Source: a virus (lineage: Duplodnaviria; Heunggongvirae; Uroviricota; Caudoviricetes). From it: a DNA stretch of 41,368 nucleotides. The notes under the pieces are model-generated. The model made no database searches, had not been told where the DNA came from, and saw nothing but the letters and a program-made list of their open reading frames with translations. Location of the stretch: IMG/VR virus record IMGVR_UViG_2660238423_000035; one strand, 5' to 3'. Shown here in pieces: positions 1-24,023 of the stretch; the stretch's first letter is position 1, and each line of letters starts with the position of its first letter. Both the position numbers and the translations under genes were made by a program.

Positions 1-555
1 TCATTTATCTCCCACCGGAAACCTCTTATACAAAGTCGATATGCCAACATCATAGATGATCGCTACCTTCAGGCGAGGAACTCCTGATGCAATTAATCGC
101 CCGGCCTGCGCCCATTGTTCTGGTGTAAGTTTGGGACGACGTCCACCAATTCGTCCCTGTGCGCGAGCAGCCTCCAGTCCAGCTTTTGTTCGTTCAACAA
201 TCAGTTCTCGTTCCATTTCAGCCAGGGCCCCCATCACATGAAAGAAAAAACGCCCCATCGGTGTGCTGGTATCAATAGCATCCGTCAGGCTGCGAAAATT
301 AACGCCACGTTCGCGCAACTCCTCAACCAGAATGACCAGATGCCGCATACTACGCCCCAGCCGATCCAGCTTCCAGACAACCAGAGTGTCACCTGCCGAT
401 AATGTCCTGAGCAGTTTTTTCAGCCCCGGCCTTTCGGACTTTGTACCGCTTATCTTGTCTTCAAAAATCAGCTCGCATCCTGCACAGTTCAGCGCATTAC
501 GTTGTAGATCTGTGTTCTGGTCATTTGTTGACACACGTACATAGCCAATAAGCAT
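1..555 (-). CDS. Serine DNA invertase, Gin/Pin/Hin/Cin family (tail-fibre host-range switch)
   Basis: Translation from internal Met MLIGYVRVSTNDQNTDLQRNAL... (184 aa) is near-identical in pattern to Gin/Pin (catalytic Ser in YVRVST, C-terminal HTH); ORF track extends 12 codons upstream to 591. Confidence 0.9.
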   Translation of the reverse strand: MLIGYVRVSTNDQNTDLQRNALNCAGCELIFEDKISGTKSERPGLKKLLRTLSAGDTLVVWKLDRLGRSMRHLVILVEELRERGVNFRSLTDAIDTSTPMGRFFFHVMGALAEMERELIVERTKAGLEAARAQGRIGGRRPKLTPEQWAQAGRLIASGVPRLKVAIIYDVGISTLYKRFPVGDK

Positions 556-581
556 GGTAGATCTCCCTGACAAAAGCAGGA

Positions 582-1133
582 ATGATGCCATTTGCTCGTT
601 ATTTCTGCATTTTCATAAACGTTGGTTTAGGAGAAGGCTCAGCATTGCCTGTTGGCGTACCTGTTCCGTGGCCCTCAGCCACTCCGCCAACAGGCTGGCT
701 AAAATGCAACGGAGCAGCTTTTTCTGCTGAAGAATACCCGGAACTGGCAAAGGCTTACCCGACAAATAAATTGCCTGATTTACGTGGTGAGTTTATTCGT
801 GGCTGGGATGACGGACGTGGTATGGATACGGGGAGGGCAATATTATCAGCTCAGGGCGATGCCATACGTAATATCTATGGTGAGTTCAGAACTGTAAACA
901 CTGAAAATTATTCAATATGGGAAACAGTAGGCTCGTTTAAGGGGGCCATAGTGCCATTGAGTCCCTCTACAAACAATAGTTATTTCTCCTTAACCAGAAG
1001 TATGGTGACAGAAAGAGCAGACGGCGCTGTTTACCCAAAAGTGATTGGCCTTGATGCTTCAAGAATTGTTCCAACTGCAAACGAAAACCGTCCTCGTAAC
1101 ATTGCCTTTAATTATATCGTGAGGGCTGCCTGA
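582..1133 (+). CDS. Alternative tail-fibre C-terminal (receptor-binding) domain, currently in silent orientation with no constant N-terminus attached
   Basis: PVGVPVPWPSATPPTGWLKCNGAAFSAEEYPELAKAYP ... NIAFNYIVRAA matches the conserved C-terminal collar/tip motifs of enterobacterial side tail fibres; reading frame runs through the crossover site. Confidence 0.75.
   Translation: MMPFARYFCIFINVGLGEGSALPVGVPVPWPSATPPTGWLKCNGAAFSAEEYPELAKAYPTNKLPDLRGEFIRGWDDGRGMDTGRAILSAQGDAIRNIYGEFRTVNTENYSIWETVGSFKGAIVPLSPSTNNSYFSLTRSMVTERADGAVYPKVIGLDASRIVPTANENRPRNIAFNYIVRAA
610..635. other. Invertase crossover site (gix/pix-like), right end of invertible segment
   Basis: 26-bp sequence TTTTCATAAACG-TT-GGTTTAGGAGAA, imperfect inverted half-sites around a central dinucleotide as in gix/hix sites; inverted partner at 2221-2246. 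Confidence 0.7.
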
Positions 1134-1738
1134 TGAATAAAGCGGTATTAAATAACGAACTCATTGCTATAAAAGCGGGAGACATTACCATTTATAATTA
1201 TGATGGTGAAACGCGGGAATATATTTCCACATCAACTGAATATCTTGCTGTGGGTGTCGGTATCCCGGCATGTTCCTGTTTAGATGCTCCTGGCTCATAT
1301 AAAGCTGGTTATGCAATCTGCCGTTCTGCAGATTTTAACTCATGGGAATATGTGCCAGACCATCGCGGTGAAGTTGTCTATAACACCGAAACGGGAGAAT
1401 CAAAAGAAATCACAGCTCCGGGTGATTACCCTGAAAATACAACCACTATCGTCCCGTTAACGCCATACGATAAATGGGATGGTGAGAAATGGGTGACAGA
1501 TACTGAGGCACAGCATAATGCCGCAGTAGACGCGGCAGAAGCACAGCGCCAGTCACTGATTGATGCAGCAATGGCTTCCATCAGTCTGATTCAGCTGAAA
1601 TTACAGGCCAGACGTAAACTGACGCAGGCAGAAACAACCCGACTAAACGCTGTGCTGGATTACATTGACGCGGTGATGGCAACGGATACCAGCACCGCGC
1701 CGGTGGTTATCTGGCCAGTTCCTCCTGAGACGGTTTAA
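1133..1738 (+). CDS. Tail-fibre assembly protein (Tfa/Mu U-like), partner of the alternative fibre tip
   Basis: 201 aa; conserved Tfa C-terminus ...AEAQRQSLIDAAMASISLIQLKLQ...[17 protein letters not shown]; start overlaps stop of upstream fibre segment. Confidence 0.8.
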   Translation: MNKAVLNNELIAIKAGDITIYNYDGETREYISTSTEYLAVGVGIPACSCLDAPGSYKAGYAICRSADFNSWEYVPDHRGEVVYNTETGESKEITAPGDYPENTTTIVPLTPYDKWDGEKWVTDTEAQHNAAVDAAEAQRQSLIDAAMASISLIQLKLQARRKLTQAETTRLNAVLDYIDAVMATDTSTAPVVIWPVPPETV

Positions 1739-4447: not shown

Positions 4448-4800
4448 TACGCCTCCGATTTAACAGTCGTTATTCCATAGAGAGTGTCGATTTCAGCGGA
4501 AAACATGACACGTCGGGTCGTGGTATCCACCGTCGTATTGAAAGAGAGGATTGATTTAACGCCCCGCGTTTCGAGGATGCGCTTACGGATCGCCAGGTTG
4601 TAGGTTTCCGGCTTCTGCTTACCGAGCACAGACTGGATCCACGGGGTCCCTTCGGTGGTGTCGAGAAACCATTGCCCATACCACAATTCAAATCGCGTTT
4701 TTACCGCCTGCGCCACGGCCTCCGGTGAGTTAATCAGCCAGGTGTCATCACCGCTGCCAAAGGTGTAATCGCCATCGGCGTCTTCACGTCTGTATCGCAT
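4447..4800 (-). CDS. Baseplate protein (Mu gp46-like)
   Basis: 117 aa, between spike V-like and J-like genes, translationally coupled. Confidence 0.5.
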   Translation of the reverse strand: MRYRREDADGDYTFGSGDDTWLINSPEAVAQAVKTRFELWYGQWFLDTTEGTPWIQSVLGKQKPETYNLAIRKRILETRGVKSILSFNTTVDTTTRRVMFSAEIDTLYGITTVKSEA

Positions 4801-5552
4801 CAGTTTACTCCGTCGGTATTGCTTCCACCGCGCTGAACACCACCATGAGTGTGCGTATCATCGATTGGCTTGCCGTTAGCCTTCACGCTACCCAAAAACT
4901 CAACAGCACCAGTGATTTTTGAAGCCACACCAGAAACAACAGACCCCACCATGCCCCCCATCCAGGTTAACAGGCCATGAATGGTTACTTTCTCAGAAAA
5001 ATCAGCCAGGGGGGCAACCACATCAAGCCCCCCCGGAGCGACAATTTTAATTTTCCGGGTATCAGGATTAAGCTCAAAATAGGTGCTGCCGTCGTCACTA
5101 CGCAACTGTGTGGCACTGGTATTAATACCGCTAATCTTCCTTGCCTGCGACTGGGGACCGACAATACAAAACGCATCCGATAAATCATGCATTCGATCAT
5201 CGACCGACTCCTGTATCCCGCCACTCTGCCACCAGAAATCAATACAACGATCGGCAAAAATCACCAAACATTCATCACCGGCTTTAACTGGGAACGTTAG
5301 CGTGCATCCTCCGCCGCGCGGGAATACCACTGGCACATCCACCAGCAAGGGTAATATCGTCGACTGGTTGATTCCATTTGAGTCCGGCTCATAGCCTTTA
5401 ATCGCTGGTTGAACAACTACCGTTACCGTGTCCGGATCAAATGACTGGACGATGCCAGGCATAGAAACGCGCAGCGTCGACATGACAGAACCAGCAAGTC
5501 TTACATCGGCCTGTTCTTTGCTACCAAGTTGAGCGCTTAAAGAAACGGGCAT
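4800..5552 (-). CDS. Baseplate spike/assembly protein V (Mu gp45-like)
   Basis: 250 aa; motifs ...GIVQSFDP...PLLVDVPVVFP...GDECLVIFADR... typical of gpV family; GGAG RBS 8 nt upstream. Confidence 0.7.
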   Translation of the reverse strand: MPVSLSAQLGSKEQADVRLAGSVMSTLRVSMPGIVQSFDPDTVTVVVQPAIKGYEPDSNGINQSTILPLLVDVPVVFPRGGGCTLTFPVKAGDECLVIFADRCIDFWWQSGGIQESVDDRMHDLSDAFCIVGPQSQARKISGINTSATQLRSDDGSTYFELNPDTRKIKIVAPGGLDVVAPLADFSEKVTIHGLLTWMGGMVGSVVSGVASKITGAVEFLGSVKANGKPIDDTHTHGGVQRGGSNTDGVN

Positions 5553-5560
5553 TCATATGT

Positions 5561-5596
5561 CTCCAAAAAGCAAAAAACCCGCTCGAAGGCGGGTTT
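5561..5596 (-). terminator. Intrinsic terminator immediately after the 126-aa cargo gene
   Basis: Minus-strand hairpin AAACCCGC-CTTCGA-GCGGGTTT followed by TTTGCTTTTTGG; lies 25 nt after the stop at 5622 and abuts the RBS of gene V. Confidence 0.6.
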
Positions 5597-5621
5597 AATG
5601 TGGCTAATGTTCTTTCCATGG

Positions 5622-6002
5622 CTATGGAAGCAATTCAAAGACCGCTTTAGCATTCGCTATCGCTGTGGCTTTATCCGTGTTATTGATAGTCATGTGTAAC
5701 TTATAATCAGCCTTTGTTCTGAGCTGCTTTGACAAACTAAGTAACCCTGCAATTTCAAGCTGCGCATCATGACTTATTCCGTTATTTAAGTCACTGTACG
5801 CCCCATTATTCAGACCACTGATCAAACGGGCGTGTACACCGCCATTTACTTTGGGAAGCGGCAAATTCAAAGCAGTCACTTTTTCATTAACATGTAAATA
5901 GCTGGAATAATACGCCCTGCTAACAGCATTTCGATTAAGCATTTCATCAGAAACAGGTGCATCAGAAGCCATGGCAAGAAAATCCCTTGGTGTTACTGGC
6001 AT
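5622..6002 (-). CDS. Hypothetical protein (126 aa), cargo gene inside tail operon
   Basis: ORF with 10-nt overlap to upstream 266-aa ORF; no structural-protein features; lower GC than flanking tail genes by eye. Confidence 0.6.
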   Translation of the reverse strand: MPVTPRDFLAMASDAPVSDEMLNRNAVSRAYYSSYLHVNEKVTALNLPLPKVNGGVHARLISGLNNGAYSDLNNGISHDAQLEIAGLLSLSKQLRTKADYKLHMTINNTDKATAIANAKAVFELLP

Positions 6003-6793
6003 TGCAACATGTCCTCTTTATTATGAGCGACATAAACGCCTCCTACACTCCAGTCAGTTAATCCAGAACGCACGCGAGCTGAAATAAGCTCAACATTCAT
6101 GGCTGCGCATGTTGCTGCATCAGCATTGTTTACATACATTTCAAAAATAAGCTCTGGATCTTCACCGTCCTCAGTAACATCAAGCAGACGGACTGCAGAG
6201 TTCAGTTTTTGCACCAAATCCAGTTTTTCATACATCAAAGCTGAGATATTTTTAATCACATCCTCTTTGTTGTACCGACTGGCTATATTTGCATACTCCA
6301 GACTCCGCAACATATCTGACTCCCGGTCTTGCTCTATGAATTTCTCATACATTTCTGTACGCAAAAGGAACTCGCGCATTTCCAGAAAGCATGAAAAATC
6401 CGCAACTGAAGATGAATAGTAATATGCGTCACAAGCCAAAATTGGGCTACTGGTAGCATCGAATCCACGCTTAGCCACATTTAAAGCCTCGACTGCTCCA
6501 CTGCACCAGAACAAACCCAGATTATAGTTCCTCCATGCGACAGTATCTGTAGGTAGATATCTCAACATTTCTTCCGCATAATATTTACCGCGCTCGATAT
6601 CTCCTAGGGTGAAGTAGAAAAAGGATAATGCAGAGCATTTTAGCCCCGGGTCCTGAATCTCTTCGATCTGCTTAGCAGTTCGTTCTTTAACAAAAACGGT
6701 AATATCCTGCTCAAAACACAAGTAAGGTCGCAGGGTCATAACAACCCGATTAACTGTTTTAATATCCCTGGATTTTTGTGTTTTTGGTTGCAT
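5993..6793 (-). CDS. Hypothetical protein (266 aa), cargo gene inside tail operon
   Basis: ORF preceded by 89-bp gap; helical/repeat-like composition, no nucleotide-binding or catalytic motifs recognised. Confidence 0.6.
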   Translation of the reverse strand: MQPKTQKSRDIKTVNRVVMTLRPYLCFEQDITVFVKERTAKQIEEIQDPGLKCSALSFFYFTLGDIERGKYYAEEMLRYLPTDTVAWRNYNLGLFWCSGAVEALNVAKRGFDATSSPILACDAYYYSSSVADFSCFLEMREFLLRTEMYEKFIEQDRESDMLRSLEYANIASRYNKEDVIKNISALMYEKLDLVQKLNSAVRLLDVTEDGEDPELIFEMYVNNADAATCAAMNVELISARVRSGLTDWSVGGVYVAHNKEDMLQCQ

Positions 6794-6882
6794 GTTCGAC
6801 GCTAGCTTTCATCTTTGGTCTGGAAATGGTAATACCTACGCAGTTTAACACCAATTGTCTGGTTGTCTAAACAACGTCAAAC

Positions 6883-7218
6883 TCACTTCACCTTCCGGCA
6901 ATCATACGTCCAGAACTCCCGAGGGTCGTCCATATTTTTGCGGATAACTTCAACGTTGAGGATCGGCTTGCCATTTCTGGCCACAAAATCCATCCCTAAC
7001 CAACGCCCATTACCCGGAATCATCCATTGGATGTTCACATTGTCATAATCACCTTCCTGTTTGAGAAAGATGATTTTCTGTGTCTCCGGTTTCTGTCCAT
7101 TAATCCTTGCAAGTCCGTCTTGCGCTTTCCAGTTGATCGTAAATGGTCCGCAACCGGTATCAGCAAAGGAAATGAAGGAGATACAGACAAGTAAAACTGT
7201 CAACAATGGTCTTTTCAT
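6883..7218 (-). CDS. Small secreted/periplasmic protein (111 aa) with N-terminal signal peptide
   Basis: MKRPLLTVLLVCISFISFA hydrophobic signal followed by DTGC...; start overlaps stop of upstream tail gene (ATGA). Confidence 0.6.
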   Translation of the reverse strand: MKRPLLTVLLVCISFISFADTGCGPFTINWKAQDGLARINGQKPETQKIIFLKQEGDYDNVNIQWMIPGNGRWLGMDFVARNGKPILNVEVIRKNMDDPREFWTYDCRKVK

Positions 7219-8246
7219 GTGTATTTCGCCGCATCAATCCCTTTCGAGTTAAGCAATTCTTTGCCACCTTTAGCCAGGCAAAGCAGGTCCATATACCACG
7301 CCTGCCCTCGGGTGTCGCCAGTATAATCAATGCTGCCCACAATGTAATCACCGTCAGTATTAATACTGGCAGGCTGTGACATGCCTGGCAGACCGTTAAC
7401 GTAGAGATTACCGTCGCTTTCAGACTCATCCAGTCGTGCTGGCGATTTCGCTACCTGGTCATTACTCAAAGAGGCACGGTATACGGATGCCTGATCCAGA
7501 CGAATAAGTCCACCCAGCTTAATATTTGGATTAATCAGACATCTGACATTTACGCCAGCTCCCATCGTCTGCTGTGGCATACCGATAAGCCCGGTGTTAG
7601 CATTCAACACCGTAGCAACACCAATATATTTATCTTCAGGAACAATATTTACCAGATTATTTTCATACCACCAGTTAGCTTTACACTGCCCTGCGATATG
7701 ATTCATCAACCTTGATGTGTTTTGATAAACAACGCGGCCTCGGGGAAATACCGTTTCAGGCATGTCAGGAACTGCGCCGGATTCGATGCCATATGGTTCG
7801 AATGATTTCATACCCAGACTGAAAAGATCGCTGTACTTCCAGCCAGCTGCCACTGTGGTTTTCACACTTGCGTTCAGGTGGCCTTCCCAACTGTCAATAC
7901 ACTGCAATATGATCCAACTGTCTGTGGCATTATCTTTACCAGTGACAGTAAAACGGATATCTCCATTGAATATCATGCCAACGTTTTCATCAGGATAATT
8001 ACCTGCTGCATCCGGTTGCCCCTTGTATCCGGCAATAACCTGTATACGCGAAAACTCCTTCTGCATAATCCGGTTCTGAGTGGTAGGGGACAGGTTATAA
8101 ACCTTAAAATTCCCAACGAATCCATTAAATATGGTCGCAGGCATTTTCTGAATATTGAAAGTGACTTTAAGCTCAGAAATTTTTATCCCGTCGCCCTTAT
8201 CATCAACAAGCAATAATTCAAAGTGACGCATCCAGTTTTTCGACAT
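7215..8246 (-). CDS. Tail/baseplate hub protein (Mu gp44 / P2 gpD-like, putative)
   Basis: 343 aa from MSKNWMRHF... (start 2 nt after upstream stop); position between tape measure-distal genes and baseplate. Confidence 0.45.
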   Translation of the reverse strand: MSKNWMRHFELLLVDDKGDGIKISELKVTFNIQKMPATIFNGFVGNFKVYNLSPTTQNRIMQKEFSRIQVIAGYKGQPDAAGNYPDENVGMIFNGDIRFTVTGKDNATDSWIILQCIDSWEGHLNASVKTTVAAGWKYSDLFSLGMKSFEPYGIESGAVPDMPETVFPRGRVVYQNTSRLMNHIAGQCKANWWYENNLVNIVPEDKYIGVATVLNANTGLIGMPQQTMGAGVNVRCLINPNIKLGGLIRLDQASVYRASLSNDQVAKSPARLDESESDGNLYVNGLPGMSQPASINTDGDYIVGSIDYTGDTRGQAWYMDLLCLAKGGKELLNSKGIDAAKYT

Positions 8247-8248
8247 TG

Positions 8249-8551
8249 TTACTCCGTGAAAACATAGAGGTGTGAGAGCGTTCCAAGACCGAATTGCGTC
8301 GGACTCTCCTGCCCTGCCACGTCGCAAAGCACCACCAGAGAAAAACCCAGATCCATATATCGATACTGTGCCAGCAGGTCAGCCCCCGTAATCATCGGTA
8401 TACCTGATATAATGGCGGAACCATTGCTGTCAGCAAGATCCAGAACCCAGTACTCTCCTCGCCAGATGACAGACAGGTGATAAACCGAACCGTTAATTGT
8501 GGTGGCAAAAGTCTGATTGTCAGCAACCAGTGGGATTTCTACGGCTTTCAT
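8249..8551 (-). CDS. Tail protein (hypothetical)
   Basis: 100-aa ORF in tail operon, coupled to neighbours. Confidence 0.45.
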   Translation of the reverse strand: MKAVEIPLVADNQTFATTINGSVYHLSVIWRGEYWVLDLADSNGSAIISGIPMITGADLLAQYRYMDLGFSLVVLCDVAGQESPTQFGLGTLSHLYVFTE

Positions 8552-8554
8552 GAA

Positions 8555-9205
8555 TCATCTTCCCAGAAATAAATTGCTCAAATACCCATCAACAGTGGAG
8601 ATACCTTCTTGCGCCATCTGTGGCAGCGATTTCAGAATGGAATTATTCGGTGACACGGTTGTTTTGGTGCCTGTATTCTGCACAGCAGACGTTCCGACTC
8701 CCTCGGTCATATTGTTTTTCGGGGCAACCCTGACTGACTGCGTGGAGGTAATAATTACTTCCCTGAGGGTAAGCGTCGCCAGAAGCACATTTTCACTACT
8801 CTTATCGGTCGTGACCTCCAGCGTTTTTATCAACATATTGTTGTAAATACGCTTGCCGGTTGTCACATCGAAAGGAATACGATTCCGCTGCAGGTTAAGC
8901 AGTTCCTGATACAGTTCTTTCGGGCTCAGCACCAGTAAACTGGTAGCCGTCAGGTTACTGGCAAAATCAAGCAGCGATCCGCCTCCGGAAAAACCGGTTT
9001 CCATCACAACCTCAGAAGGGCGCCTGAATGCGTGTTCTGATATATAACCAGCGCCCTCACCACTGGCACCAGCATTCGTGGGCTGTTCAACAGGATGTTC
9101 CGTAATTTCCAGGGCGTCAGTGTGCTTTTCGGTAATAACCACATCAGGAATAATGATTCCTATTGAGCGGGTTCGCTGCTGCAGTAAAACAGATAAAAAG
9201 TCCAT
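8555..9205 (-). CDS. Tail protein (hypothetical, downstream of tape measure)
   Basis: 216-aa ORF, start overlaps tape-measure stop. Confidence 0.45.
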   Translation of the reverse strand: MDFLSVLLQQRTRSIGIIIPDVVITEKHTDALEITEHPVEQPTNAGASGEGAGYISEHAFRRPSEVVMETGFSGGGSLLDFASNLTATSLLVLSPKELYQELLNLQRNRIPFDVTTGKRIYNNMLIKTLEVTTDKSSENVLLATLTLREVIITSTQSVRVAPKNNMTEGVGTSAVQNTGTKTTVSPNNSILKSLPQMAQEGISTVDGYLSNLFLGR

Positions 9206-11232
9206 TACGCAGGTCCTTTCAATTGCTGTACCGCCCTGGCATTTACAGCCCCCTGCTTGTCAGCGATCAGATTAGCCGCCTCCTGAGGGTTGTTAACTCC
9301 ATGAACATTTATAACAGTCTGCTGGTTAAGGCTGCCAGCGGCGACCTTATACGCCAGCGGGCTGTTCCAGTTTGAATAACCTTCTTTGCGCGCCATCGAC
9401 TGCATCAATGCTCCCATAGTCCGGGGATCTGTAAGATTCAATATTGCATTCGGTGATACTCCCATCCATTTCGCAACATCCTGTGCATACTTTTTCGGAT
9501 CGTTGTTATCACCTGCCGGGGCCCAGGTACTGACAATATCCTGAATAGTCTGTAATGCCCGTCCGGTTGTTTTCCCGGTAAAGTAACGCATGAGCTGGTT
9601 TTTCATCGCCTCCCAGCCCTCAAGCGCTGATTCGAAAAAACGGAACCCTTTACCGCTCACCGGGCGAATGTTCCCGGGGTTATTGTTGCGATCAGCAAGA
9701 GTGCCGCCGCCGGGGATGTCGGGCTGGACATTGGAGCCATGCACTACACCGTTACTCTGTCCCTGCCGGATAACTTTACCGGGTCCCCCGTGCAACCAGT
9801 CCATCCACGCAGGCCATTCACGGACCTCACTGACATCCCTGCGTCCGATATCTGTTTTTATACCAATAGCAGCCAGCGTGTCGCCGATAATTCGCTTCGT
9901 ATACCTCAGTGAAGATTTTGCGCTATCAGCAATATTTTCTCTGTCACTAACAATATAGCCCGCGTAAAGCGCCCACAATTTAAGCCAGGGTGGGACCGGT
10001 AAACCTGATATTTTTCCGAAAGCCCCCAGAACCTTGGATACCCAGACACCCGCGATGAATGTACCGATGATTTCCAGTGCATTTTGCCAGCCGCCAACAC
10101 CATCTTTTAGTTCCAGAAAGTGATCACGAAGCCAGGTGATCGCATCCTTCGCTTTATCTATTGCCGGTTGCCATTTTTCCCAGTCGATAAGACTGTTACC
10201 GCCTTCTTTCCATGTTTTGTAGTCTTCCCACAAGAGACCGAGAGCCACGATCAGACCGGTAATCAGCCCTATAGGTGACATCCAGAAAGTAGAGTTAAGT
10301 ATCCGCATGGCGACAACCAGACCGCCGATAACCTCTATCAGGTTTTTCGTTTCGGCATCCAGTTTCCCCCACCACTCGATGATATCTCCGACACCATCGA
10401 CTATCCGAAATGCAACCCGCCCGACTATCTCACCCAGCCAGAGGATCCCCTTTATGACCTTTGTGATGGTGACTTCAATTTTGGGAAAATTTTCAATTAT
10501 CTTTTTGCGCAGGTTATCAATCTGCCCCGCCAGTCCGTCCGCAAGATTCGATCCGATTTTGTCCCGCGCCATCCCGGCCATTTCACCGAGCGATTTCAGC
10601 GAGGTCATAAACCGGTTTGACGATAAGGCAGCCTGATCGGCATTAAATCCGATCGCTTTCACCATTTCTGAATACTGAGCGCTGAACTGCCCCACTCCGC
10701 GACGCATAGCCATCAGGGTATTTTCGTCAATGCCCAGCATCTGCGCATACTGGTTAGCCCGGTAATACGGCATGCTGCTGAGTTTCTGTCCAACGCCCGT
10801 AAAGATAGCGGCCATGTCACGCATGTTACCGCTGGCATCACGGGTCTGTACGCCCAGGCGATTCAGAAAGCCTTCTGCTCCGGGATTGTTACGAATAAAC
10901 CGGGAGAGGTTTTCCAGAGAAGATCGCGCAGCGTCCACGCTGCCGCCAACCTGCGAAACCGCATAGCCAATAGACTGAATTCCCTGGACTGTCGCGCCGG
11001 TGCGCTGTGACGCCCAGTAAAGATTATCCAGACCAGAGGCGATCTTAGCCGTGAAAGCCACCACGGACAGCGCAGCTCCTTCGACGGCCAGCCCCATTTT
11101 GATGACATTTGCAGTTGTACCGGCGAGGACAGAACCGAACTTTTTCGCTCCTGCATCATCCACACTGAAGCCAAGCGAGACGAGGAAATCTTTAATAGTC
11201 TCGGCGTTCATTATCCTCTCTCCATTTCTCAA
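9205..11232 (-). CDS. Tail tape measure protein
   Basis: 675 aa, helical N-terminal region with hydrophobic central segments, location after tail chaperone; C-terminal region with possible peptidoglycan-hydrolase-like segment. Confidence 0.8.
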   Translation of the reverse strand: MRNGERIMNAETIKDFLVSLGFSVDDAGAKKFGSVLAGTTANVIKMGLAVEGAALSVVAFTAKIASGLDNLYWASQRTGATVQGIQSIGYAVSQVGGSVDAARSSLENLSRFIRNNPGAEGFLNRLGVQTRDASGNMRDMAAIFTGVGQKLSSMPYYRANQYAQMLGIDENTLMAMRRGVGQFSAQYSEMVKAIGFNADQAALSSNRFMTSLKSLGEMAGMARDKIGSNLADGLAGQIDNLRKKIIENFPKIEVTITKVIKGILWLGEIVGRVAFRIVDGVGDIIEWWGKLDAETKNLIEVIGGLVVAMRILNSTFWMSPIGLITGLIVALGLLWEDYKTWKEGGNSLIDWEKWQPAIDKAKDAITWLRDHFLELKDGVGGWQNALEIIGTFIAGVWVSKVLGAFGKISGLPVPPWLKLWALYAGYIVSDRENIADSAKSSLRYTKRIIGDTLAAIGIKTDIGRRDVSEVREWPAWMDWLHGGPGKVIRQGQSNGVVHGSNVQPDIPGGGTLADRNNNPGNIRPVSGKGFRFFESALEGWEAMKNQLMRYFTGKTTGRALQTIQDIVSTWAPAGDNNDPKKYAQDVAKWMGVSPNAILNLTDPRTMGALMQSMARKEGYSNWNSPLAYKVAAGSLNQQTVINVHGVNNPQEAANLIADKQGAVNARAVQQLKGPA

Positions 11233-22594: not shown

Positions 22595-23119
22595 TTACCG
22601 GGACTGTTCTATTTGTCGGACACCAGCCAACTGGTTATTCGCCTTCTCGATGGCTGCCAACAATGGGTTAATCCACAGAACAGCCTGGCAATATGTCAAC
22701 GTTCTGGTGGTAGTGGCACGATCACCGGCTGAGTCAATGTCCCCGGAATCGGCGTGCAATGCGCTGGCGCGTAAACGGTTCGCGTAGTTGAGCAACCCGA
22801 CAGCAATATCAACAGGAACAGGGAAATCACAGTTCTTTTCACGGAGCAGAACCTCACGGTATTTGATGACTGTCTTCTCGTGATCGATGTCGACCAGAGA
22901 ATTTAATCGGCTTGCGTTTTCTGCTATCTGGTTAAAACGATTGAAGTTTAATGCCTGATTAGCTATCACTTTCCCTTGATATTCAGCTTCACCTTCCGCT
23001 TTATCAGCCCGCAACTTTTCTGCCTGATACTTGCTGTGGTAATGGTTTGCAGACCAGACGAGCGCCCCAAAGACAGAGAAGAAAAATGCCGCGATGACAA
23101 TCTTATAAGTCAGCTTCAT
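22595..23119 (-). CDS. Spanin, inner-membrane subunit (Rz-like lysis protein)
   Basis: 174 aa with N-terminal transmembrane segment (…IVIAAFFFSVFGALVWSANHY…, compare lambda Rz …WAVNHY…) and coiled-coil periplasmic region; overlaps endolysin stop. Confidence 0.6.
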   Translation of the reverse strand: MKLTYKIVIAAFFFSVFGALVWSANHYHSKYQAEKLRADKAEGEAEYQGKVIANQALNFNRFNQIAENASRLNSLVDIDHEKTVIKYREVLLREKNCDFPVPVDIAVGLLNYANRLRASALHADSGDIDSAGDRATTTRTLTYCQAVLWINPLLAAIEKANNQLAGVRQIEQSR

Positions 23120-23579
23120 TTACCACCCCACCAGCATCTTTAAACCTGGAAATCAGGTCACCGATTTTATGTTCATACTGACCGTAACCTGCACCAGGTA
23201 ACGACGCCCAGATATTGCTGCAACGGTCGATTGCCTGACGAATATCTCCACGGTCAATCATCGGTAAAGCGCCACGCTCTTTAATCTGCTGCAGCGCCAC
23301 AGCATCCTGACTTTCTGGCGAAAAATCTTTCAGGCCAAGCTGCTTGCGGTAGGCATCCCACCAGCGTGAAAGAAGCTGATACCGGCCTGCAGCTGTTGAT
23401 TTAAGCTTCGGGTTGAGCGTGACAAGTTTGCGAGGGTGATCGGAGTAATCAGTGAACAACTCACCTCCGACGATAACGTCATAACCGTGATTACGTGTCG
23501 GTTGTCGCCCGTTATCCGTTCCTTCTGACCATGCCACCATATCCAGGAAAGCTTTACGTTGGGAATTTAGTGTCTGCAT
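23103..23579 (-). CDS. Endolysin, lambda R-like lytic transglycosylase
   Basis: 158 aa; long stretches identical in pattern to lambda R (…QRKAFLDM.AWSEGTDNGRQ.TRNHGYDVIVGGELFTDYSDHPRKLVTLNPKLKST.AGRYQLLSRWWDAYRKQLGLKDFSP.SQDAVALQQIKERGALPMIDRGDIRQAIDRCSNIWASLPGAGYGQ…). Confidence 0.9.
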   Translation of the reverse strand: MQTLNSQRKAFLDMVAWSEGTDNGRQPTRNHGYDVIVGGELFTDYSDHPRKLVTLNPKLKSTAAGRYQLLSRWWDAYRKQLGLKDFSPESQDAVALQQIKERGALPMIDRGDIRQAIDRCSNIWASLPGAGYGQYEHKIGDLISRFKDAGGVVNEADL

Positions 23580-23582
23580 GAA

Positions 23583-23924
23583 TTACTCCTTAGAGCCACC
23601 AAACTTGTTACCGATTACTCGCATTGCAGCCCCACGAATAGCATCGACACCGATCAGCCCAACACCACCACCAATGGCAACAGAAAGCGATTTAGGCCAT
23701 CCAACATACTCAAGAGCGGATGCAAAGGTCAGCGTCAGAGCACCACAGAGCAAAATCTCAAGCGTTTTTCGTTTCCAGCCGCCGCCACCGCCAAAATAGG
23801 CAATGCGCAAACCAGCCATAACAATTGACATAACCACTGCGCCCAACGGCGTATCTCCACGCCACCAACTTTGTAAGAGTTCCAGTAAGTCAGGCCAGGA
23901 ATGAGGAGCATTGTGCATTTTCAT
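23583..23924 (-). CDS. Holin (class I, three transmembrane segments) with Met-Lys-Met dual-start motif
   Basis: 114 aa from MKMHNAPHSW... preceded by GGAGGTGG RBS; three hydrophobic helices; ORF track extends 6 codons upstream to 23942. Confidence 0.7.
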   Translation of the reverse strand: MKMHNAPHSWPDLLELLQSWWRGDTPLGAVVMSIVMAGLRIAYFGGGGGWKRKTLEILLCGALTLTFASALEYVGWPKSLSVAIGGGVGLIGVDAIRGAAMRVIGNKFGGSKE

Positions 23925-24023
23925 ACTTCCCACCTCCGCCATTACGGGGTGTTGTTGAAAGGCGGGCCCTGCGTATACGCCCGTAGGATTGGGTTATGAG
24001 CCGTCCTTCGGTGGGCCCTGAAT

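Follow-up and report, generated by a model that had tools for sequence, protein, structure and literature searches.

A predicted Sec-exported protein coupled to the baseplate hub gene of contractile-tailed prophages is a possible exclusion or protection factor

The gene described here encodes a protein of 111 residues and lies within the window, by which we mean the whole stretch of viral DNA that was analysed (41,368 nucleotides). Its surroundings are SEN34/Brunovirus-like contractile tail genes in the order tape measure protein, Dit-like protein, Pam3-gp18-like plug, hub, the small gene, a two-gene insert, spike (with the GpV apex motif), sheath initiator, baseplate J, and a DUF2612 protein. 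The features of the locus, from the hub to the spike, are as follows.

7215-8246, minus strand: baseplate hub gene, 343 aa, upstream of the small gene (Pfam E217_GP41, phrog_196 'baseplate hub', NCBIfam orf58_phage_fam)
7215-7218, minus strand: ATGA overlap of the small-gene start and the hub stop (sequence)
6883-7218, minus strand: complete coding sequence of the putative exported protein, 111 aa, stop codon at 6883-6885 (open reading frame list and sequence)
7162-7218, minus strand: predicted Sec signal peptide, residues 1-19 (MKRPLLTVLLVCISFISFA; n/h/c-region features)
6886-7161, minus strand: predicted mature periplasmic domain, residues 20-111, 92 aa, ~10.7 kDa, pI 8.7
5575-6869, minus strand: two-gene cargo moron, a neighbour outside the feature (promoter/terminator scan)
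6869-6842, minus strand: cargo promoter-like site with an extended -10 (promoter/terminator scan)
5993-6793, minus strand: cargo gene, 266 aa, no family match
5622-6002, minus strand: cargo HEPN_IX-like gene, 126 aa, overlapping the 266-aa gene (PADLOC HEPN_IX, E = 2.3e-6; phrog_5176)
5596-5575, minus strand: strong terminator-like hairpin of the cargo (promoter/terminator scan)
4800-5552, minus strand: gene of the membrane-puncturing spike, which closes the hub-spike slot (Pfam N-terminal spike domain and GpV Apex motif; RefSeq name)

The domain matches of the upstream gene bear out the original prediction that it is hub-like. RefSeq starts the hub of Escherichia coli EH2252 at the ATG equivalent to 8246 (343 aa, MSKNWMRHF), and the MSKNWMRHF-type start is the conserved N-terminus of all hub homologs. 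The mechanically called hub frame (7215-8327, minus strand) begins with a TTG at 8327, comprises 370 aa and overlaps the plug gene. The EH2252 chromosome is 100% identical to the 3.8-kb segment searched (window positions 4800-8600), and its record annotates the small gene as a coding sequence. Elsewhere in the EH2252 record, the pinE site-specific recombinase gene adjoins tail-fibre and tail-fibre-assembly genes (L006, 3202-4924), and the corresponding part of the window (1-1738) has open reading frames on both strands, which suggests an invertible host-range segment.

The small frame is a real gene, as indicated by a match to the phrog_3443 profile, 61 database homologs, and a confident AlphaFold model. 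Its GC content (0.449) matches that of the hub (0.450), and it is therefore grouped by composition with the hub and not with the downstream insert (0.42). The insert had been described as a low-GC neighbour; the adjacency is correct, but the difference in GC is slight (0.42 versus 0.45). In protein clustering at 90% identity, the 111-aa protein is filed with hub proteins of 343-346 aa, an assignment that probably arose from the gene overlap or from fusions called by read-through.

The small gene and the hub gene overlap as originally described. On the plus strand, CAT (the ATG start) occupies 7216-7218 and TCA (the hub TGA) occupies 7215-7217. The arrangement is conserved: the homolog starts between -10 and +20 nt from the hub stop in about 58 of 61 related loci, with ATGA or a 1-nt overlap very frequent. 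No Shine-Dalgarno sequence is present at the usual distance before the small gene; an AAGGGA is located 18 nt upstream. The promoter/terminator scan finds no promoter above background for the small gene and no terminator between it and the hub. The small gene probably relies on coupling to hub translation. As it has neither a promoter above background nor a Shine-Dalgarno sequence, its expression in an uninduced lysogen, a prerequisite of classical prophage exclusion, is doubtful. By the definition of a moron (own promoter and terminator, sporadic presence), the small gene is not one, as only the ATGA coupling is found and a homolog occurs in 61 of 79 loci.

The 111-aa protein, whose translation begins MKRPLLTVLLVCISFISFADTGCGPF, matches phrog_3443, a family listed with unknown function, with E = 6e-42 over residues 6-111 (PHROG HMM). 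It is 60% identical to WP_000755137.1, a RefSeq 'STY1065/STY2022 family phage-derived protein' encoded at the same genomic position. On these matches, it is a member of the phrog_3443 (STY1065/STY2022) family. Pfam, NCBIfam, and PADLOC give no meaningful match for the protein, and a literature search on STY1065/STY2022 returned nothing relevant. The database search yields 61 close homologs, all told from Enterobacterales, and a profile search of 1.8 billion cluster representatives gives only 53 matches, indicating that the family is narrow. Within this range it is common: hundreds of E. coli contigs encode the exact protein, and relatives are spread across Enterobacterales prophages. Twenty phage records carry a homolog (28-72% identity), all of temperate type and with hosts in Klebsiella, Escherichia, Salmonella, Citrobacter, and Yersinia; in the five records inspected, the gene follows the hub directly in all five. 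Some records already label the family 'exported' or 'secreted'. As the family is already catalogued and partly labelled as exported, what is new lies in the slot pattern described below and perhaps in an exclusion or immunity family not recognised before.

The original prediction of a Sec-type signal peptide followed by a mature domain with two cysteines holds, and the signal-peptide features recur across the family. The n-region is M-K-R (two positive charges) and is followed by the uncharged hydrophobic core LLTVLLVCISFISF. Small residues stand at positions -3 and -1 (S-F-A, then D), and signal peptidase I is predicted to cut between A19 and D20 (SFA/DTG), a site that follows from the -3/-1 rule. 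AxA-like sites lie 2-6 residues ahead of the conserved cysteine in the homologs. By a crude script that scores n/h/c-region features heuristically, the small protein is the top-scoring real gene of the window; the only other real gene to score comparably is that of the Rz-like spanin, a protein with a membrane anchor. The same heuristic is passed by 60 of 68 homologs, and five of the eight failures are upstream-extended frames, each with an internal methionine that is followed by a typical signal peptide. Across 48 sequences, identity is 23% in the signal-peptide columns (the first 19) and 68.5% in the 92 mature columns, and the leader columns are uniformly hydrophobic despite their low identity (mean Kyte-Doolittle value of the h-region 1.93). 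A hydrophobic leader of low identity ahead of a conserved mature part is the pattern typical of a signal peptide.

The protein is a non-lipoprotein. The lipobox [LVI][ASTVI][GAS]C is found in 0 of 68 homologs; here D-T-G precedes C23, and Q is the commonest residue at -1 in the family. A Sec-type leader without a lipobox predicts a soluble periplasmic protein. The mature part contains two cysteines, C23 and C107, of which C107 is invariant across homologs and C23 at least nearly so. The AlphaFold2 model (48-sequence alignment; pLDDT 87.6) comprises an N-terminal helix, corresponding to the signal peptide, and seven to eight beta strands in an up-and-down arrangement. The modelled fold is a generic small barrel, avidin/calycin-like, with both ends probably tied by a C23-C107 disulfide. 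This barrel is predicted with confidence, but Foldseek searches of the PDB and BFVD return nothing with E < 0.09 and thus no significant structural relative. The family also contains fusion proteins of about 290 aa (P0068 and P0080; L028, 5099-5989, and L030, 5075-5941), in which an N-terminal lipoprotein domain with a clear lipobox precedes the phrog_3443 domain. The fusions therefore place the phrog_3443 domain outside the cytoplasm.

To describe the position between hub and spike, we compared 79 loci with hub relatives, fetched from contigs of one genome per species. The slot holds a phrog_3443 homolog in 61 loci and another signal-peptide or lipoprotein gene in eight (L008, L012, L018, L020, L021, L023, L042, and L061). 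The spike gene, intact or interrupted, follows the hub directly in seven loci, five of which have the lowest-scoring and most divergent hubs; the remaining three loci are truncated or unclear. The alternative occupants have no detectable remote homology to phrog_3443 (hhalign probabilities 8% and 0.1%). In Trabulsiella guamensis (L008, 4545-5535), whose hub is 92% identical to that of the window, three consecutive signal-peptide frames (80, 136, and 113 aa) stand in place of the phrog_3443 gene; the 136-aa frame shows a weak similarity around a C-G motif that is not significant (the hhalign value of 8%). The Photorhabdus slot (L042, 5086-6207) encodes a 374-aa lipoprotein whose N-terminal half is homologous to the N-domain of the fused phrog_3443 members (38% identity, E = 3e-33) and whose C-terminal half differs from those fusions; neither fusion domain has a Pfam match. 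The N-domain common to this lipoprotein and to the fused members indicates that slot proteins are modular. In Serratia aquatilis (L069; NZ_CP173186.1, 5092-7745), five tandem copies follow the hub directly. They are 31-75% identical to one another, and one is truncated to 75 aa. The intergenic gaps of this array measure about 130-500 nt and could hold promoters of their own.

The interval between hub and spike is also a cargo hotspot (window 5553-6882; E. coli L007 and L087-L090). The cargo pair of the window, with its promoter-like site and terminator-like hairpin, agrees with the definition of a moron and may function in defence or as a toxin-antitoxin module. Where the window has the HEPN-like pair, near-identical E. 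coli prophages have DUF4282, a Phd/Doc toxin-antitoxin system, a TPR protein with a hypothetical protein, or Arc/P22AR. The original prediction had offered, as an alternative, that the small protein is a periplasmic partner of the two downstream genes. Adjacency speaks for this, in this window only, and we regard a partnership as almost certainly wrong. The hub, plug, and spike proteins of several E. coli prophages are 97-99% identical to those of the window. Three of these prophages encode a small protein with 98% identity to that of the window, ahead of DUF4282, Phd/Doc, or TPR cargos; two more encode one with just 60% identity, ahead of DUF4282 or Arc/P22AR. The same allele is thus seen with four different cargos. 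Conversely, homologs of the window's cargo pair in L021 and L061 sit behind unrelated exported proteins, with no phrog_3443 homolog in the locus. The alleles of the small gene reassort with the cargos, and the cargo has a promoter-like site and a terminator of its own.

The same comparison bears on a structural role. The small protein could be a structural or assembly component of the tail, its hydrophobic N-terminus serving uncleaved as a membrane-insertion or anchoring helix, and the conserved position between hub and spike, coupled to the hub across homologs 28-88% identical, is what such a component would have. We nevertheless consider this very unlikely. Alleles of 60% identity occur with hub and spike proteins that are nearly identical (98-99%; 97-99% when the plug is included), and the small protein, on these alignments, does not co-vary with the structural proteins. 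Among locus pairs with hubs at least 90% identical, identity of the mature domain ranges from 61% to 99%, a spread that alone is weak evidence because the spike also reassorts among loci. In related tails, the slot is empty or replaced by unrelated exported proteins, and in one it holds five tandem copies. No tail genes lie near the stand-alone homologs described below. The AxA-type cut site and the two conserved cysteines are in keeping with a periplasmic protein. Finally, in the published baseplate structures of E217 and Pam3, the hub is joined to the spike without a slot product, and these baseplates are complete without such a protein; the equivalent slot of E217 encodes gp42, an unrelated 177-aa protein that has no signal peptide. 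Taken together, these observations make it unlikely that the small protein is a virion component, in line with the original view that its leader is unexpected for a part of the tail. The literature yielded no virion proteome of a phage carrying a homolog: the SEN34 paper includes no proteomics, and Klebsiella phage MMNM, whose paper reports virion mass spectrometry, is not among the homolog-encoding records, the paper being silent on such a gene.

Homologs also occur outside prophages. In Erwiniaceae (L092, L093, L094, L095, and L098), more distant, stand-alone homologs (E = 1e-10 to 1e-22) occur singly in ordinary chromosomal surroundings. The Mixta calida gene is flanked by yciY and yciI, and a member of its cluster is found on 166 contigs; the Pantoea vagans gene follows fliE; an Erwinia gene lies between LysR regulator genes; and the Erwinia typographi gene (L093) lies near an Hcp gene, with no informative domain among its neighbours. 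Evidently, the phrog_3443 domain can function in the absence of tail proteins.

Stand-alone copies fixed at chromosomal loci, such as the yciY/yciI site of M. calida, are what would be expected of a lysogenic conversion factor that benefits the host and has no part in conflict between phages, for example in envelope stress, ligand binding, or colonisation, in a role like that of lambda Bor or Lom; the avidin/calycin-like barrel is, moreover, a common ligand-binding fold. In phages, however, the gene lacks its own promoter and is tied to a late structural gene, whereas morons usually have the reverse arrangement, as the neighbouring cargo does. Swapped alleles and diverged copies in tandem are also easier to reconcile with conflict than with housekeeping. 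We therefore hold a host-benefit role to be unlikely.

The host copies are also hard to explain if the protein were a late lysis accessory factor acting on the peptidoglycan or the outer membrane. Its predicted late expression and periplasmic location would suit such a factor, but a complete lysis cassette (holin, endolysin, and Rz-like spanin) is present elsewhere in the window (22595-23942), to which the small gene is unlinked. A lysis role is accordingly highly improbable.

At its C-terminus, the tape measure protein has a muralytic, endolysin-like domain of ~170 residues (window 9205-9720, minus strand) with an NNNPGNIR motif; the domain matches PDB entries 7q47 ('Endolysin') and 9vvp ('Gp29') and is missed by Pfam. 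This domain would be the obvious target if the small protein were a periplasmic inhibitor, or 'immunity' protein, of a peptidoglycan-degrading enzyme. The model for such an activity is T4 Spackle, which inhibits the gp5 lysozyme, together with PliC and MliC, which inhibit lysozymes. Co-occurrence with the muralytic domain is loose, however: both are present in 40 loci, only the small gene in 21, only the domain in 11, and neither in seven. A 60%-diverged allele also stands beside a 98%-identical tape measure protein. The co-occurrence test is thus unsupportive and weakens the tape-measure idea, and we rate an inhibitor of this kind as rather improbable. As to the MliC/PliC inhibitors themselves, the small protein has no Pfam MliC domain and no close similarity to their barrel.

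Specificity or arms-race genes typically have divergent alleles within an otherwise constant background, form tandem arrays, and are exchanged for unrelated exported proteins. Judged by its swapped alleles, its tandem arrays, and its replacement by unrelated exported proteins, the small gene looks like a conflict or specificity gene. The best-fitting known kind, by analogy, would be the exported exclusion or protection proteins exemplified by T4 Spackle, P1 Sim, T5 Llp, Cor, and HK97 gp15. Homology to known exclusion proteins was not found, and no PHROG annotated as superinfection exclusion is matched.

Exclusion of the Cor type had been proposed for the small protein. As an analogy this stands: Cor of phi80, N15, and T1 is likewise small, exported, and encoded within the late tail region, and the proposed role, a block of entry, is similar. 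Membership of the Cor family does not stand, as hhalign against N15 Cor gives a probability of 4% and the lipobox is missing here. N15 Cor, 78 aa long, is a lipoprotein whose lipobox reads LLSGC, in contrast to the 0 of 68 in the phrog_3443 family, and Cor adjoins tail-fibre genes, whereas the phrog_3443 gene follows the baseplate hub. Cor proteins are further characterised by their inactivation of FhuA or another outer-membrane receptor.

After removal of a Sec signal peptide, T4 Spackle (gp61.3) and P1 Sim are small soluble proteins of the periplasm, and both target the incoming phage. The small protein, as predicted here, resembles both in size, solubility, location, and leader. Spackle, however, is helical and encoded by an early gene; the phrog_3443 model is all-beta, and the small gene is coupled to a late one. 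T5 Llp, a small beta-rich lipoprotein with a disulfide bond, blocks FhuA from the periplasmic side and is linked to tail or receptor-binding genes. The small protein would share with Llp its size, beta-rich fold, disulfide, and periplasmic location, and it shares the linkage to tail genes; it differs in being no lipoprotein, although some phrog_3443 relatives are fused behind a lipoprotein domain. HK97 gp15 is a moron encoding an inner-membrane protein. It is similarly an accessory gene inside a tail operon, but the small gene has neither a promoter nor a terminator of its own, and its product is predicted to be soluble and periplasmic. A reference in the review PMC11436027 points to HK97 gp15 as an anti-phage accessory gene embedded among tail genes, and the same review lists exported exclusion-protein precedents, including T4 Imm/Sp.

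Homology searches against these proteins gave negative results. A family profile search of all PDB sequences returns nothing at E <= 10, T5 Llp has no sequence match in the PDB or PHROGs searches, and Spackle, Llp, and TP-J34 Ltp, for which structures have been solved, show no sequence or fold similarity to the small protein.

In the model that we favour, though tentatively, the small protein is a Sec-exported, non-lipidated, non-virion accessory protein that may interfere with other phages as they breach the envelope or as their DNA enters, or may mask a component of the envelope. Ribosomes ending the hub gene would re-initiate at the overlapping ATGA, and the protein would be made together with the late tail proteins. 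Removal of the 19-residue signal peptide would leave a 92-residue beta-barrel, probably clamped by the C23-C107 disulfide. The protein would fill a fixed 'exported-protein slot' between hub and spike of SEN34/Brunovirus-like contractile tails and would act on its own in the cell envelope. There, its most likely activity would be to hinder other phages in breaching the envelope or in bringing in their DNA; alternatively, it would mask an envelope component that progeny would otherwise bind. Late expression coupled to the hub would suit exclusion in lytic growth, or masking that keeps progeny from being lost to debris, and fits constitutive prophage immunity less well.

A more speculative extension, to which we give little weight, is that the hub-spike slot is a dedicated site for periplasmic 'immunity-like' proteins, akin to the vgrG-effector-immunity loci of T6SS. 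On this reading, phrog_3443 would be a new family common to prophages and orphan chromosomal loci that neutralises the harm done to the envelope by contractile injection machines, be they phage tails, tailocins, or T6SS, for example by shielding sister lysogens from lysis-from-without after induction.

The slot offers a genomic rule: in tails of this kind, an exported protein is translationally coupled to the hub gene, whatever its family, and more such genes could be sought by this rule. As the exact protein is present on hundreds of E. coli contigs and has relatives across Enterobacterales, a defined function would annotate a common prophage gene. If the protein does block entry or protect the envelope, phrog_3443 would be a new and structurally distinct family beside the few known periplasmic exclusion proteins, and it would be relevant to the prediction of host range in phage therapy.
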